From Escherichia phage F2: a DNA stretch of 64,000 nucleotides. Made by a program: the position numbers and the translations under genes. The stretch's first letter is position 1. Each line of letters opens with the position of its first letter. The stretch is taken from the sequence record NC_054913.1; one strand, written 5' to 3'. The notes beneath the pieces are model-generated. The model worked only from the letters and a program-made list of their open reading frames with translations, made no database searches and was not told where the DNA came from. Shown here one piece after another: positions 30,453 to 35,021 of this stretch.

Positions 30453-31538
<1,086 letters not shown>

Positions 31539-31539
<1 letters not shown>

Positions 31540-32220: not shown

Positions 32221-32250
32221 GTTTACAACATGGTGGAGTTGTGATACTAT
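32221..32250 (+). promoter_or_regulatory. early promoter
   Basis: GTTTAC at 32221-32226, TACTAT at 32245-32250. Confidence 0.55.
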
Positions 32251-32278: not shown

Positions 32279-32515
32279 ATGCTAAGTGAAAACCCAATTA
32301 CAGTACACGAATTTCAGATTAAAGTAAAAGAATTTGCTCAAGCACTCATCAATAAAGTGTCTGAACGTTTCCAAGATGCAACATTACGAGTTATTCAAGA
32401 ATCTCCACGTTCTTTTCTCATAATCGTTAATCCTAAAGATGGTGACCAAATTACTAATCTTAAATTAGGCAGTGATGGTCTTGTTGAAGCAACTCGAGTA
32501 TATGGAACACTATAA
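32279..32515 (+). CDS. hypothetical protein
   Basis: 78-aa ORF with RBS GAGGAAA. Confidence 0.45.
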   Translation: MLSENPITVHEFQIKVKEFAQALINKVSERFQDATLRVIQESPRSFLIIVNPKDGDQITNLKLGSDGLVEATRVYGTL

Positions 32516-32635
32516 TGAGAGCTATCTCATTACTATCGTGAATGGTCATAAATCTGAGAACTACCAACTTAGCCTGTCTAATCCGGTTAAAGGTATTGTT
32601 GAATCAGAATCTGTTTATATCTCCTAAGGATTGTT

Positions 32636-33628
32636 ATGTTACCTGTCATCAGAAAACTTATTTCTCCAAAAGAACTGGCTGAGATTATTCCTTTGTCGGA
32701 AGCTTACGCATCACAAGTGGCTTCTCATCGCGAACAAGTTAATTCGATTATGAACGGTGAAGACCCACGCAAACTTATTGTTGTAGGTCCTTGTTCAATT
32801 CATGACCCTATTGCTGCTGTTGAATACGGCAAACGTCTGGCTGAACTTCAAACTCGTCTTCCTAATGTTCTGTTAGTGATGCGCGTTTATTTTGAAAAGC
32901 CTCGAACTACCGTAGGTTGGAAAGGTCTTGTAAATGATCCATATCTTGACGGAAGTTTTGATATGAACCACGGTCTTATAGTTGCACGAACATTGTGTCG
33001 TAAACTTCTACGTATGGGACTTCCATTAGCAACTGAAGTATTAGACCCATTCACGATTAAGTATCTTTCTGGTATTTTCTCATGGGTTGCTATTGGCGCC
33101 CGTACGACTGAAAGTCAGACACATCGTGAAATTGCTTCAGGTCTACCGATGTGCGTAGGCTTCAAGAACGCAACCAATGGTTCTATTAAAGTAGCTACAG
33201 ACGCGATGTATAGTGCCGCCTGGCCTCATCGGTATATGGGTATGGACGTCGATGGTACTGTAGGCATTGTTGAAGCTGAAGGTAATCAGAATACGCATAT
33301 CGTATTGCGTGGCGGGACCAACGGCCCGAACTATCATTCTTCTGATATTCAAGAAGCTTCTAACAAAGCAAGGGCAGTAGGTCTGAATCATTATGTAATG
33401 GTTGACTGTAGCCATGCAAACGCTGATGGTCATTATAGCAATCAAATTGGTATTGGTAAAAATTTAGCAGCTAATGATTTGGTCAAAGGAATTATGATAG
33501 AATCATTCCTACATGAAGGAAATCAAAAAATTTCTGATAATATGTCCTATGGCGTTTCCGTTACCGATGCGTGCATCAGTTGGGAACAAACTAAAGAGCT
33601 GTTAACTTATATTAATAAGGTTCAATAA
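32636..33628 (+). CDS. 3-deoxy-D-arabino-heptulosonate-7-phosphate (DAHP) synthase, class I alpha (AroG/AroF/AroH-like)
   Basis: 330 aa; alignable along its length with E. coli AroG: LIVVGPCSIHDP, MRVYFEKPRTTVGWKGL.NDP, AIGARTTESQ.HRE.ASGL, VGFKN.T.G.IKVA.DA, D.SHAN and E.GNQ motifs. Confidence 0.9.
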   Translation: MLPVIRKLISPKELAEIIPLSEAYASQVASHREQVNSIMNGEDPRKLIVVGPCSIHDPIAAVEYGKRLAELQTRLPNVLLVMRVYFEKPRTTVGWKGLVNDPYLDGSFDMNHGLIVARTLCRKLLRMGLPLATEVLDPFTIKYLSGIFSWVAIGARTTESQTHREIASGLPMCVGFKNATNGSIKVATDAMYSAAWPHRYMGMDVDGTVGIVEAEGNQNTHIVLRGGTNGPNYHSSDIQEASNKARAVGLNHYVMVDCSHANADGHYSNQIGIGKNLAANDLVKGIMIESFLHEGNQKISDNMSYGVSVTDACISWEQTKELLTYINKVQ

Positions 33629-34209
33629 TGAAAGCTAGCACATACCTTCAGATTGCATATCTGATTTCTCAAGAATCAAAATGTTGTTCATGGAAAGTTG
33701 GCGCAGTCATTGAAAAAGATGGGCGCATTATTTCTACTGGGTATAACGGTTCACCTGCAGGTGGCGTTAACTGTTGCGAACATGCATCTGAAAATGGTTG
33801 GTTGAAGAATAAACCAAGCCCGGTCATCGTTGCTGGACATAAAGAAGGCACTACAGCATTTGGACGGGTGGATAATTTTGTTTTGGCTAAAGAACATCGG
33901 GCCGCTCATAGTGCATGGTCTGCTAATAACGAAATCCATGCTGAATTGAATGCAATTTTGTTTGCAGCTCGTAAAGGTAATTCTATTGAAGGTGCTACGT
34001 TATATACGACGCTTTCTCCGTGTCCTGATTGCACTAAAGCTATTACGCAGTCAGGTATTAAAAAGGTTGTATACGCAGAATTATATGACAGATCTCCTGA
34101 AAATTGGGCAGACATTCTAAAACAAGCTGGTATTGAAGTAATTCAGTACTCTCGTAATAATCTTCGTTCTCTGAATTGGGAACAAATCCGAAACTTTTGT
34201 GGTGAATAA
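33628..34209 (+). CDS. cd: dCMP deaminase
   Basis: 193 aa, same length as T4 Cd; CCSWKVGAVIEK.GRIISTGYNGSPAGG and HAELNAILFAAR, SPCPDC zinc-binding motifs. Confidence 0.95.
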   Translation: MKASTYLQIAYLISQESKCCSWKVGAVIEKDGRIISTGYNGSPAGGVNCCEHASENGWLKNKPSPVIVAGHKEGTTAFGRVDNFVLAKEHRAAHSAWSANNEIHAELNAILFAARKGNSIEGATLYTTLSPCPDCTKAITQSGIKKVVYAELYDRSPENWADILKQAGIEVIQYSRNNLRSLNWEQIRNFCGE

Positions 34210-34507
34210 TATGATTTTAACTGAACAGGAAACTATGGTTCTTCGTGAACGTATTAAAACTATTCTGTCTGTAGGCGTTCATTGTGTTGTATTTGAAAAG
34301 GCTAACGGTGAGGTACGCACTATGTTTGCTTCGCGCGATGAACTTGAAGTCAAATATGAAAATAACAATCCGGCAACAGAAGTTCGTTATGAACCTCGTG
34401 AATCAGTTCGAGCATTCGATACCAAGTTAGGTCAGTGGCGTTCTTTCCGCCTTGATAAAGTAATTTCGGTTGATGGTACTCCTGTAGAACGTTTGCTTCT
34501 TATGTAA
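34199..34507 (+). CDS. hypothetical protein (31.x-like)
   Basis: 102-aa ORF overlapping the cd stop. Confidence 0.45.
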   Translation: MVNNMILTEQETMVLRERIKTILSVGVHCVVFEKANGEVRTMFASRDELEVKYENNNPATEVRYEPRESVRAFDTKLGQWRSFRLDKVISVDGTPVERLLLM

Positions 34508-34534
34508 TATGCTTTACGAATAGTATGGTATTAT
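34508..34534 (+). promoter_or_regulatory. candidate MotA-dependent middle promoter for gene 31
   Basis: MotA box TATGCTTTA at 34508-34516 and TATTAT 12 bp downstream. Confidence 0.45.
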
Positions 34535-34897: not shown

Positions 34898-34904
34898 TAT
34901 AAAT
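34897..34904 (+). promoter_or_regulatory. candidate late promoter TATAAATA upstream of rIII
   Basis: Exact TATAAATA about 117 bp upstream of the rIII start, followed by GAAGAG-aaca-CTCTTC hairpin. Confidence 0.35.
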
Positions 34905-35021
34905 AACTATATGAAGAGAACACTCTTCTAAGCGGTAGCCTACAACTGAGAGACTTGTCGAAAGAAGGTGAAATTCAGACGAACGTGGCTACTAAATATT
35001 ATCTCGAATTGAGAATTTAAA

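Follow-up and report, generated by a model that had tools for sequence, protein, structure and literature searches.

In type I-alpha DAHP synthases the allosteric machinery consists of an extension at the N-terminus together with a beta-hairpin, and the extension adds to the inhibitor site of the partner subunit (PMC4735112). In AroG and AroF of Escherichia coli the main chain of the inhibitor is contacted by Q151 and S180, while D155 stabilises the region, and feedback resistance of AroG is conferred by P150L, S180F, F209A/S and Q151 variants (PMC9529685). The phage enzyme analysed here is colinear with E. coli AroF, AroG and AroH (6agm, 1kfl, 1qr7), and has in common with them the predicted fold, the metal site, the KPRT motif, the Arg and Lys residues for PEP and the beta6a/6b hairpin. 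In contrast to these cellular isozymes it has deletions of 5 and 3 residues in C-terminal loops, and its gene is found on a lytic phage and has a phage codon composition. Compared with AroG, it lacks residues 2-9 of the N-terminal extension, and, besides the exchanges of Q151 to K, S180 to P and P150 to I, the residues D155, F209 and T223 are replaced too.

The engineered feedback-resistant variants of AroG (P150L, S180F, D146N, F209A), AroF and AroFcg carry changes at these pocket positions too and leave the catalytic barrel intact, and, judging from the sequence, the expected outcome for the phage enzyme would likewise be a shikimate flux that is independent of end products. The phage solution differs from the engineered ones in that it is natural, multi-site and evolutionarily fixed, and combines other replacement residues with the loss of an N-terminal element.

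The classical phage auxiliary metabolic genes (AMGs) act at rate-limiting host steps, as is the case for psbA and talC of cyanophages, and for nrd and td of T4-like phages. The DAHP synthase gene resembles these in that a lytic phage carries, among its early metabolic genes, one enzyme of host type that acts at a controlling step, whereas its target is the biosynthesis of amino acids and chorismate, and not photosynthesis or nucleotides. As expected of an AMG, it encodes a host-type metabolic enzyme, has phage genes on both sides and belongs to a bona fide phage genome.

The same gene is annotated in the Straboviridae JS09, PhAPEC2, CIP9, PEi26, Marfa, Virsaitis27, PM2 and EcS1, and it is labelled "AroG" in Shf125875 and "aroF" in O157 typing phages. 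The location in the pseT-cd slot, the truncated N-terminus and the substituted pocket are all common to these other copies, which show no material difference from the one described here. A homologue from Klebsiella phage KLB31 has been discussed as an AMG (PMC11845039; 2025). The searchable literature holds no activity, inhibition or expression data on phage DAHP synthases, which receive only passing mentions for phiC120 and KLB31. The novelty implied by the initial annotation is not supported, as an identical protein is already annotated and a homologue is already described as an AMG in print, and finding the gene adds nothing in itself, since it is annotated in more than 200 phage genomes. 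The contribution seems instead to be the recognition that T4-like phages of enterobacteria include a widespread clade with a putatively deregulated DAHP synthase, in which the changes fall mostly on the feedback site.

Gene structure and genomic context

The window is a 64,000-nucleotide stretch of the genome of Escherichia phage F2 (NC_054913.1), a Mosigvirus of the RB69/JS09 group. The DAHP synthase open reading frame begins with ATG, encodes 330 amino acids and ends with the stop codon TAA at 33626-33628 (Table 1). A longer N-terminus is ruled out, since there is an in-frame TGA upstream, at 32600, and direct reading of the sequence from there to 32636 reveals no ATG, GTG or TTG. The good ribosome binding site that had been proposed for the gene is indeed present, as AAGGA located 5 nt before the ATG, and the record of phage Mizar has a ribosome binding site annotated at the matching place. 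At the other end, the stop codon shares one base with the ATG of cd (33628-33630), in the arrangement TAATG, which is compatible with translational coupling of the two genes.

Table 1. Features of the pseT-cd region; positions refer to the window.
Feature	Position	Strand	Basis
pseT, polynucleotide kinase/phosphatase, conserved, anchoring the syntenic slot on its upstream side	30640..31539	+	profile match, synteny
Candidate MotA-box-like middle-promoter match TGCTTCA-N12-TACAAT, inside pseT	31232..31256	+	motif scan
Candidate promoter, sigma-70-like (TTTACA-17-TACTAT with TG), between cd.3 and cd.2	32222..32250	+	consensus match only
cd.2 homologue (DUF7320), upstream neighbour; directly abuts cd in RB69	32279..32515	+	profile match
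Direct repeat, left copy, 19 bp, ATAATGAGAGCTATCTCAT	32512..32530	+	degenerate version of the start region of cd
Spacer from cd.2 to the DAHP synthase gene, 120 bp, belonging to the cassette	32516..32635	+	comparison
Shine-Dalgarno AAGGA, 5 nt from ATG	32626..32630	+	sequence read directly
DAHP synthase gene, type I-alpha, phage clade	32636..33628	+	family, residue and fold analyses
Direct repeat, right copy, ATAATGAAAGCTAGCACAT, genuine cd start	33625..33643	+	right indel edge
cd (dCMP deaminase)	33628..34209	+	profile match
Remodelled allosteric-site residues in the window protein: I141, K142, G146, I147, P171, Y200, A214			

The initial annotation had placed the gene in the pseT...cd block, co-oriented with early genes, in a slot where T4 carries only small cd.x ORFs, and this description is correct in all its parts. 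RB69, like T4, has just small cd.x ORFs in the slot. Most of a small ORF (32472-32627, 51 aa), which is given as hypothetical in the annotation of phage Mizar, lies in the 120-bp spacer. RB69 and the marine isolate vB_Eco_mar007P3 have no DAHP synthase gene, which is therefore dispensable, and the segment missing from both has its left edge at the left copy of a direct repeat. The two copies are identical in 16 of the 19 positions, a score that was reached in 6/500 shuffles, so that the repeat is short and only modestly significant alone, and gains its weight from its exact placement at both edges of the indel.

The sigma-70-like match in the cd.3/cd.2 gap is the nearest candidate promoter upstream of the gene. 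In the promoter scan of the region the total of matches equalled the chance expectation, with no enrichment over shuffles, and promoter assignments therefore stay as candidates only. The nearest upstream MotA-box-like match is that inside pseT, one of 10 in the window, where 1.9 are expected. The stretch from these promoter-like matches down to the DAHP synthase gene contains no terminator-like or late-promoter motif.

Family, fold and catalytic site

The protein matches the Pfam family DAHP_synth_1 (PF00793) with E=5e-75 (252 bits, cut-off 25.5), and the NCBIfam models TIGR00034 for aroFGH (428.5 bits, cut-off 173.2) and NF009395 (455.9 bits, cut-off 343). Among solved structures the best match is that of E. 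coli AroF, 6agm (E=4e-105). The scores with the AroG equivalog (364) and with the AroH model (387) of NCBIfam are under the respective cut-offs of 568 and 463. As had been proposed, the ORF is colinear with E. coli AroG, the alignment covering its whole length, and its N-terminus is shorter, by exactly 8 residues. All the motifs listed in support of this relationship, GPCSIHDP, MRVYFEKPRTTVGWKGL, AIGARTTESQTHREIASGL, KVATDA and ESFLHEGNQ, are found in the protein, with the exception of the quoted HANS, which is actually SHANAD. The AlphaFold2 (AF2) model, with a pLDDT of 89.8, gives Foldseek TM-scores of 0.92-0.94 to 1kfl, 1qr7 and 5d02 (AroG and Neisseria DAH7PS), and in this predicted structure the beta6a/6b hairpin typical of type I-alpha is kept, formed by strands 198-203 and 209-214.

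The metal ligands C53, H260, E289 and D311 correspond to Cys61, His268, Glu302 and Asp326 of AroG, and do not vary among the sequences compared (29/29 from phages, 98/98 from bacteria). The residues that bind PEP and E4P are R83, K88-P89-R90-T91, G154-A155-R156, K177 and R225, equivalent to AroG R92, K97-P98-R99-T100, G163-A164-R165, K186 and R234, and are likewise invariant in the phage clade. A careful alignment in search of lost metal- or PEP-binding residues thus revealed none, and the catalytic positions for metal, PEP and E4P are all kept (14/14), without variation across the 29 phage-clade sequences. Family assignment, residues and predicted fold together confirm, at the level of sequence and model, that the protein is indeed a DAHP synthase of type I-alpha (AroF/G/H), complete over its full length.

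The Pfam family PF00793 spans both DAHP and KDO8P synthases, and the phiC120 genome paper related the DAHP synthetase domain to the biosynthesis of LPS as well as that of aromatic amino acids (PMC8022965). An enzyme similar to KDO8P synthase, serving lipopolysaccharide or sugar metabolism, is nevertheless a highly improbable alternative. The only NCBIfam matches are to DAHP synthase models, with the aroFGH equivalog far over its cut-off, and no match to KdsA models was obtained at E ≤ 0.001. Moreover, the KPRT motif for E4P and the Cys/His/Glu/Asp metal site are as in AroG, and the top structural matches are all DAH7PS. We rejected this identity on the basis of the lack of a KdsA match and the conservation of the KPRT motif.

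Distribution and evolutionary history

The protein is 100% identical to GenBank phage proteins annotated as DAHP synthase, including the copies of NBG1 and Mizar. Homologues are present in 211 phage records, and the gene is uninterrupted in all of them (211/211). Within Mosigvirus the identity is 98-100%, and the gene occupies the identical place in 138 independently sequenced records, whereas in other genera the identity is 58-77%. In the T4-like lineages whose pseT-cd slot was read, corresponding to five genera and one metagenomic contig, the slot is occupied by DAHP synthase in 6/6.

The identity to the E. coli isozymes is 51% for AroF, 48% for AroG and 44% for AroH, and the closest bacterial relatives, with only 50-55% identity, come from various taxa (Enterobacterales AroF, Pseudomonadales, Planctomycetota and Pontiella). 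The best 120 relatives split cleanly into a phage and a bacterial type. In the phylogeny that was suggested for distinguishing a host from a phage origin, the phage clade is monophyletic in 100/100 neighbour-joining bootstraps, indicating phage ancestry. This monophyly, and the fact that the bacterial relatives are at most 55% identical and taxonomically mixed, led us to reject a recent capture from the host. The GC content at third codon positions (GC3) is 29% in the phage gene, against 50-57% in aroF/G/H. The dN/dS values of 0.15-0.23 are approximate, as inter-genus dS is near saturation. The gene is under purifying selection, and has been kept in the phage lineage rather than transiently captured.

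The proposal that the region could result from host contamination or misassembly, or that the gene is a decaying pseudogene, is almost certainly wrong. One of the representatives of the clusters at 90% does bear the NCBI label "Escherichia coli", but this entry lies on a phage-sized contig of 170,875 bp. The 138 independently sequenced Mosigvirus records agree in both the gene and its place, the identity to AroF is just 51%, and GC3 is phage-like. A pseudogene is in turn contradicted by the 211 uninterrupted copies and by a dN/dS well below 1.

Remodelling of the allosteric site

In an unbiased screen of the whole protein, only 7 columns discriminate the phage clade from the 98 bacterial relatives, namely 150, 151, 155, 156, 180, 209 and 223 (AroG numbering). 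At least 5 of these are at or beside the inhibitor site (P150I, Q151K, D155G, S180P and F209Y), so that the canonical residues P150, Q151, D155, S180 and F209 are absent, and the window protein has I141, K142, G146, P171 and Y200 in their places. Q151 is replaced by K or R in 29/29 phage sequences and is Q in 98/98 bacterial ones, S180 by P in 29/29 (S in 97/98 bacterial), P150 by I in 28/29 (P in 91/98 bacterial) and F209 by Y in 29/29 (F in 97/98 bacterial), the last being a conservative change. The N-terminal regulatory extension, including AroG residues 6-8, is also absent in 29/29 phage sequences, and there are 8-12 residues before the conserved Pro19 in the phage clade, against 16-53 in the 98 bacterial relatives. 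The earlier idea that the phage enzyme may be regulated differently, which was based on the shorter N-terminus, is strengthened by these substitutions at known feedback-resistance positions, with the caveat that the natural phage substitutions differ from the tested ones, and that Lys151 could still bind a carboxylate.

It is possible, though unlikely, that the protein is an ordinary AroF-like isozyme regulated by Tyr and still feedback-controlled, which would add enzyme copies during the shut-off of host expression. Gly is present, as in AroF, at the AroG-211 position (G202), the discriminator between Tyr and Phe. AroF is also the best match among solved structures, the beta6a/6b hairpin is kept in the AF2 model, the pocket residues are strongly conserved, and Lys142 could still pair with the carboxylate of the amino acid. 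Apart from G202, however, the Tyr pocket of AroF (Q152, S181 and the N-terminal residues) is not matched, as K and P are found instead and the N-terminal part is lacking. The phage clade has no N-terminal extension, the scores are under the NCBIfam cut-offs of the AroG equivalog and the AroH model, and Q151, S180 and P150, replaced in essentially all phage copies, are near-invariant in the 98 bacterial relatives and are positions at which substitutions abolish the inhibition of AroG (PMC9529685). The "Tyr-sensitive" label of several GenBank phage records appears to have been transferred by homology-based annotation.

Within the phage clade, conservation is higher at the pocket residues than in the remaining protein (0.93 versus 0.74, p about 0.0008), and I141, K142, G146, P171, Y200 and A214 are near-invariant among phage genera whose overall identity is only 58-77%. 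This conservation fits a retained purpose, such as a dimer interface or a different ligand, equally as well as a plain loss of regulation. A rather improbable reading is that the pocket was retargeted to a different effector, or that the enzyme is an irreversible sink for E4P and PEP, with the pentose-phosphate flux tied to the nucleotide and DNA-sugar metabolism of the phage and not to aromatic supply. The rebuilt and frozen pocket might then conceivably bind a new effector, such as a nucleotide peculiar to the phage or an intermediate of the pathway, or else the enzyme might be such a sink, and in both cases entry into the shikimate pathway would be coupled to the nucleotide and arabinosyl-hmC sugar metabolism of the phage. 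Such a role would agree with the fixation of the substituted residues and their conservation above the protein average, with the position of the gene in the nucleotide-metabolism block, where its stop overlaps the cd start, and with the presence, in every DAHP synthase-bearing lineage checked, of the RB69-type arabinosyl-hmC sugar-nucleotide cluster (RB69p050-055; PMC8056088), two of whose genes, one for an arabinose-5-P isomerase and one resembling phosphoheptose isomerase, act on pentose-phosphate intermediates. However, RB69 itself, in which arabinosyl-hmC was demonstrated (PMC6024577), has no DAHP synthase gene, Dhakavirus (JS98) has a homologue of RB69p052 and is absent from the DAHP synthase matches, and the Acinetobacter matches are only distant (e.g. 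48% identity, on a 13-kb MD-2021a contig) and fall outside the phage clade. Furthermore, given the monophyly and synteny of the clade, the co-distribution could stem from one event in an ancestor, and it has no statistical weight. The E4P-binding KPRT motif is unchanged, and carbon would be wasted by an E4P sink. Given RB69, JS98, the distant Acinetobacter matches and a co-distribution that probably goes back to one ancestral event, the link to arabinosyl-hmC was downgraded. The DNA of Mosigvirus is arabinosylated, an observation that, together with the cluster in the DAHP synthase-bearing lineages, had prompted consideration of this link.

Proposed role during infection

On balance, it seems likely from the residues and the model that the phage gene encodes an active, feedback-insensitive type I-alpha DAHP synthase, long carried by T4-like Enterobacterales phages. 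The enzyme would convert E4P and PEP to DAHP and Pi. Its gene has a fixed slot directly upstream of cd, in the prereplicative pseT-cd gene block, and would be expressed as an early or middle gene. The active site is unaltered relative to the cellular AroF/G/H enzymes, and the allosteric apparatus appears to have been rebuilt, in that the N-terminal extension, by which the partner subunit has its inhibitor pocket closed, is missing, and the residues predicted to contact the main chain of the inhibitor are replaced (Q151 by K, S180 by P, P150 by I, F209 by Y and D155 by G). Most likely, Tyr, Phe and Trp would no longer be able to switch off the phage enzyme, and the flow of carbon into the shikimate pathway would be kept up in the infected cell after the shut-down of host transcription. 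This flow would persist even in amino-acid-rich surroundings, where repression and inhibition act on the DAHP synthases of the host, and the carbon would end up in aromatic amino acids and in cofactors made from chorismate, folate among them. Since no other shikimate-pathway gene was found in the flanking regions read, any benefit to the phage would depend on host enzymes that survive the shut-off.

If confirmed, this would offer a clear example of how a phage overrides the control that end products exert on a pathway to amino acids and cofactors, and the phage enzyme would be a natural template for the feedback-resistant DAHP synthases of metabolic engineering. Natural pairs of phages with and without the gene exist, namely JS09-type phages versus RB69 and mar005P1 versus mar007P3, which makes the question of its contribution to fitness directly testable.

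Identity and catalytic residues

The product of the DAHP synthase (DAHPS) gene matches Pfam DAHP_synth_1 (E = 5e-75), scores 428 bits against the NCBIfam aroFGH equivalog TIGR00034 (cut-off 173) and 456 bits against NF009395 (cut-off 343), and can be aligned over its full length with E. coli AroF (6agm, E = 4e-105) and AroG (1gg1, E = 1e-91). Its AlphaFold2 model (pLDDT 89.8, pTM 0.91) gives TM scores of 0.92-0.94 against solved type I-alpha DAH7PS structures. The protein is a DAHP synthase. No KdsA model was found among its NCBIfam results, for which reason the very improbable identity as a KDO8P synthase was rejected.

When 29 sequences of the phage clade were aligned with 98 from bacteria, none of the 14 positions taken as catalytic varied. 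These comprise what we take to be the metal ligands C61, H268, E302 and D326, and the PEP/E4P residues R92, K97-P98-R99-T100, G163-A164-R165, K186 and R234 (AroG numbering, used throughout). The loss of metal- or PEP-binding residues, raised in the initial annotation as an argument against this function, was thus not observed. It is very probable that the enzyme is catalytically competent.

Gene context and expression

The ORF, ribosome-binding site and pseT-cd setting (see table), like the full-length alignment with AroG, are as the initial annotation described them. A longer N-terminus is excluded, since the reading frame has a TGA at 32600 and lacks start codons from there to 32636, and the DAHPS stop and the cd ATG share one base (TAATG). 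DAHPS has the same orientation as the entire pseT-to-gene-31 block, which by analogy with T4 is presumably prereplicative. No terminator-like site or late-promoter motif was found between DAHPS and the upstream promoter-like sites, and the ribosome-binding site and co-orientation suggest that the gene may be expressed. Across the whole window, the MotA-box-like pattern TGCTTYA-N11-13-TANNNT has 10 matches (1.9 expected; 10 reached in 0 of 100 shuffles), eight of them on the + strand, and the T4 late-promoter motif TATAAATA has 15 sites (6.9 expected).

Coordinates of features in the window and in comparison sequences
Feature	Position	Strand	Remark
MotA-box-like matches, examples	13958, 17102, 31232, 34510, 50828, 55692	+	pattern match
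pseT	30640-31539	+	upstream neighbour of DAHPS
MotA-box-like match	31232-31256	+	a nearest candidate promoter; consensus match
cd.4, cd.3, cd.2 homologues (DUF7355, DUF7320)			neighbours of DAHPS
Sigma-70-like match	32222-32250		a nearest candidate promoter; consensus match
Putative 51-aa ORF	32472-32627	+	GTG start; 41 aa from internal ATG at 32502
Degenerate copy of cd start	32512-32530	+	left edge of missing segment; 16/19 identical to right copy
Segment missing from RB69 and mar007P3	about 32516-33627		
AAGGA	32626-32630	+	RBS of DAHPS, 5 nt 5' of ATG
DAHPS	32636-33628	+	ATG start, 330-aa ORF
Antisense 100-aa ORF	33445-33143	-	
Antisense sigma-70-like match	33460-33432	-	TTTACC-17-TATAAT, TG, extended -10; good match
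cd start sequence	33625-33643	+	right edge of missing segment
cd	33628-34209	+	next gene after DAHPS
gp31.1 homologue	34199-34507	+	3' of cd; WYL_2 (Sm-like SH3 beta-barrel) domain; then gene 31
MotA-box-like match	34510-34534	+	just 5' of gene 31
TATAAATA copy	34898-34905	+	first base directly after gene 31 stop codon
RB69 p050-p055 cluster	L012:4493-8599		
PEi26 p050-p055 cluster	L015:10987-15618		
EcS1 p050-p055 cluster	L016:6518-10541		
HJ05 DAHP synthase	L013:3899-5062		OQ594355.1

The putative 51-aa ORF overlaps the 3' end of cd.2, terminates within the DAHPS ribosome-binding site and lies almost wholly inside a 120-bp spacer found only in phages carrying the DAHPS cassette (gene plus spacer). 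Phage Mizar's annotation lists it as a hypothetical protein, and it may be a real gene or an insertion by-product. The antisense promoter-like match within DAHPS, which is followed by the antisense ORF, is probably due to chance, as the region holds as many promoter-like matches as expected from shuffling. The GTG start of the gp31.1 homologue falls within the last codons of cd; the annotation of phage Mizar begins this gene at an ATG lying a few codons later.

Remodelling of the inhibitor site

The first residue of DAHPS is equivalent to AroG Ile10, in agreement with the shorter N-terminus initially noted, and every phage-clade sequence has 8-12 residues before the conserved Pro19, compared with 16-53 in bacterial relatives. 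Type I-alpha allosteric machinery consists of an N-terminal extension and the beta6a/6b hairpin (PMC4735112); in the phage DAHPS the hairpin is retained in the model and the extension is missing.

An unbiased screen of the whole protein for columns with one almost invariant residue in the phage clade and another, likewise almost invariant, in bacteria returned only seven, namely AroG 150, 151, 155, 156, 180, 209 and 223. Inhibitor-site roles are documented for 150, 151, 155, 180 and 209, while 156 adjoins the site and 223 was not placed; therefore, most of the changes that define the phage lineage map to the regulatory site. Q151 (98/98 bacterial relatives) is K or R in 29/29 phage-clade sequences, S180 (97/98) is P in 29/29, P150 (91/98) is I in 28/29, and F209 (97/98) is Y in 29/29. 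In AroG and AroF alike, Q151 and S180 contact the inhibitor main chain. D155 is described as a salt-bridge residue stabilising the site, and P150L, S180F, F209A/S and Q151 variants confer feedback resistance on AroG (PMC9529685). Within the phage clade, pocket residues are more conserved than the protein average (0.93 vs 0.74, p about 0.0008). Judged from these alignments, the inhibitor site is rebuilt and has thereafter been held fixed, with no drift.

We propose that the phage DAHPS would be an active enzyme freed from end-product inhibition, so that carbon entry into the shikimate pathway would continue past host shut-off, regardless of aromatic amino acid levels. Insensitivity to Tyr, Phe and Trp is rather probable, and an active, deregulated enzyme sustaining shikimate flux is the best-supported reading overall, which we favour with some reserve. 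An ordinary Tyr-regulated AroF-like enzyme, which we regard as unlikely, would also be in keeping with the Gly found at the discriminator position and with pocket conservation.

A distant DAHP synthase (38% identity to the DAHPS described here), annotated as hypothetical, is found in the 79-kb, non-T4-like genome of Aeromonas phage HJ05. Of its 14 catalytic positions, the 11 that were checked are all intact, and it has a non-canonical inhibitor site (P150A, Q151H, D155P, S180P, F209V). From this single case, feedback control may have been lost convergently in copies carried by phages.

Distribution, ancestry and previous annotation

Escherichia phage AV117 carries the gene with 100% DNA identity. 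In 138 phage records, which are Mosigvirus (RB69/JS09 group), DNA identity is 95% or more. In tblastn searches, uninterrupted homologues were found in 211 phage records, including Kanagawavirus (CIP9, PEi26; about 77% identity), Winklervirus (Virsaitis27; 69%), Kagamiyamavirus (EcS1; 68%), Marfavirus and related Klebsiella phages (67%), and Providencia and Proteus phages (58-61%), and none in T4 and its close relatives. The pseT-cd slot also holds DAHPS in CIP9, Marfa, Virsaitis27, PM2 and one metagenomic T4-like contig.

On the question of host versus phage origin raised initially, the phage clade is monophyletic in 100/100 NJ bootstraps. Identity to the E. coli enzymes is 51% (AroF), 48% (AroG) and 44% (AroH), and the best bacterial relative reaches 54%. 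The GC (41%) and GC3 (29%) contents are similar to those of pseT and cd (host aro genes, 52% and 50-57%), and comparison with four other genera gives a dN/dS of 0.15-0.23, with dS near saturation. By these measures, DAHPS has long been a phage gene, ameliorated and under selection. Recent capture was rejected on the monophyly, the identity of at most 54% to bacteria and the phage-like GC3; host-derived contamination, also considered in the initial annotation, was rejected on the phage-like GC and GC3, the 51% identity to AroF and the dN/dS, and an artefact is scarcely credible.

The novelty implied by the initial annotation is not borne out. The phage DAHPS is already known, because an identical protein is annotated in GenBank, where KF, KM and KP series accessions (JS09, Shf125875, O157 typing phages) name it, a DAHP synthase domain was noted in the phiC120 genome paper (PMC8022965), and a Kanagawavirus homologue was explicitly proposed in 2025 as a shikimate-pathway auxiliary metabolic gene (PMC11845039). 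No biochemical or physiological study of a phage DAHPS was found in the searchable literature. Our additions are modest, namely the clade-wide allosteric-site remodelling and the natural presence/absence variants, which make a testable addition to a known gene.

Annotations vary between phospho-2-dehydro-3-deoxyheptonate aldolase, DAHP synthase, AroG and aroF, and public records also use 'Tyr-sensitive', 'hypothetical protein' and 'phosphate synthase I alpha'. In some records cd is mislabelled 'ribD riboflavin biosynthesis protein' or 'tRNA-specific adenosine deaminase', and Escherichia coli is given as the source of one DAHPS protein cluster, whose 170,875-bp contig is phage-sized.

Relation to arabinosyl-hmC modification

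Arabinosyl-hmC is present in Mosigvirus DNA (PMC6024577), and putative UDP-arabinose genes were noted in certain Proteus phages (PMC8056088), which also have DAHPS. The RB69p050-p055 sugar-nucleotide cluster, linked to this modification, contains arabinose-5-P isomerase, phosphoheptose-isomerase-like and nucleotidyltransferase genes. Homologues of RB69p052 were found in 366 records, including Winklervirus and Enterobacter phages, with equal numbers in the RB69p052 and DAHPS searches for Marfa-type Klebsiella phages (25 and 25) and Proteus phages (7 and 7), and the whole cluster was confirmed in PEi26 and EcS1; thus, it occurs in every DAHPS-bearing Straboviridae lineage checked. The cluster also occurs without DAHPS, as in RB69, which has the modification. 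An RB69p052 homologue is present in both Dhakavirus (JS98) and the T4-like phages of Acinetobacter; in tblastn of phage records Dhakavirus was absent from the DAHPS matches, and Acinetobacter phages gave only distant ones outside the phage clade (e.g. 48% identity, 13-kb MD-2021a contig).

Since DAHPS appears to have been acquired once, in an ancestor of the clade, the co-distribution carries no statistical weight, and such a single event probably explains it. We keep a functional link to arabinose only within the improbable reading that the pocket was retargeted to a new ligand, or that the enzyme serves as a sink for E4P and PEP linked to the metabolism of nucleotides or sugars.

Gain or loss of the cassette

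DAHPS is present in about 138 of about 143 Mosigvirus-level records. It is dispensable, because in RB69 and the marine isolate vB_Eco_mar007P3, both without it, cd.2 abuts cd. The copies of the cd start at the edges of the missing segment would fit short-repeat recombination as the route of cassette gain or loss. The related Mosigvirus records LR027383.1 (strain vB_Eco_mar007P3, filed under the organism name vB_Eco_mar005P1) and OZ035759.1 (Mosigvirus mar005p1) differ in the presence of the cassette, a natural pair suited to fitness comparison.
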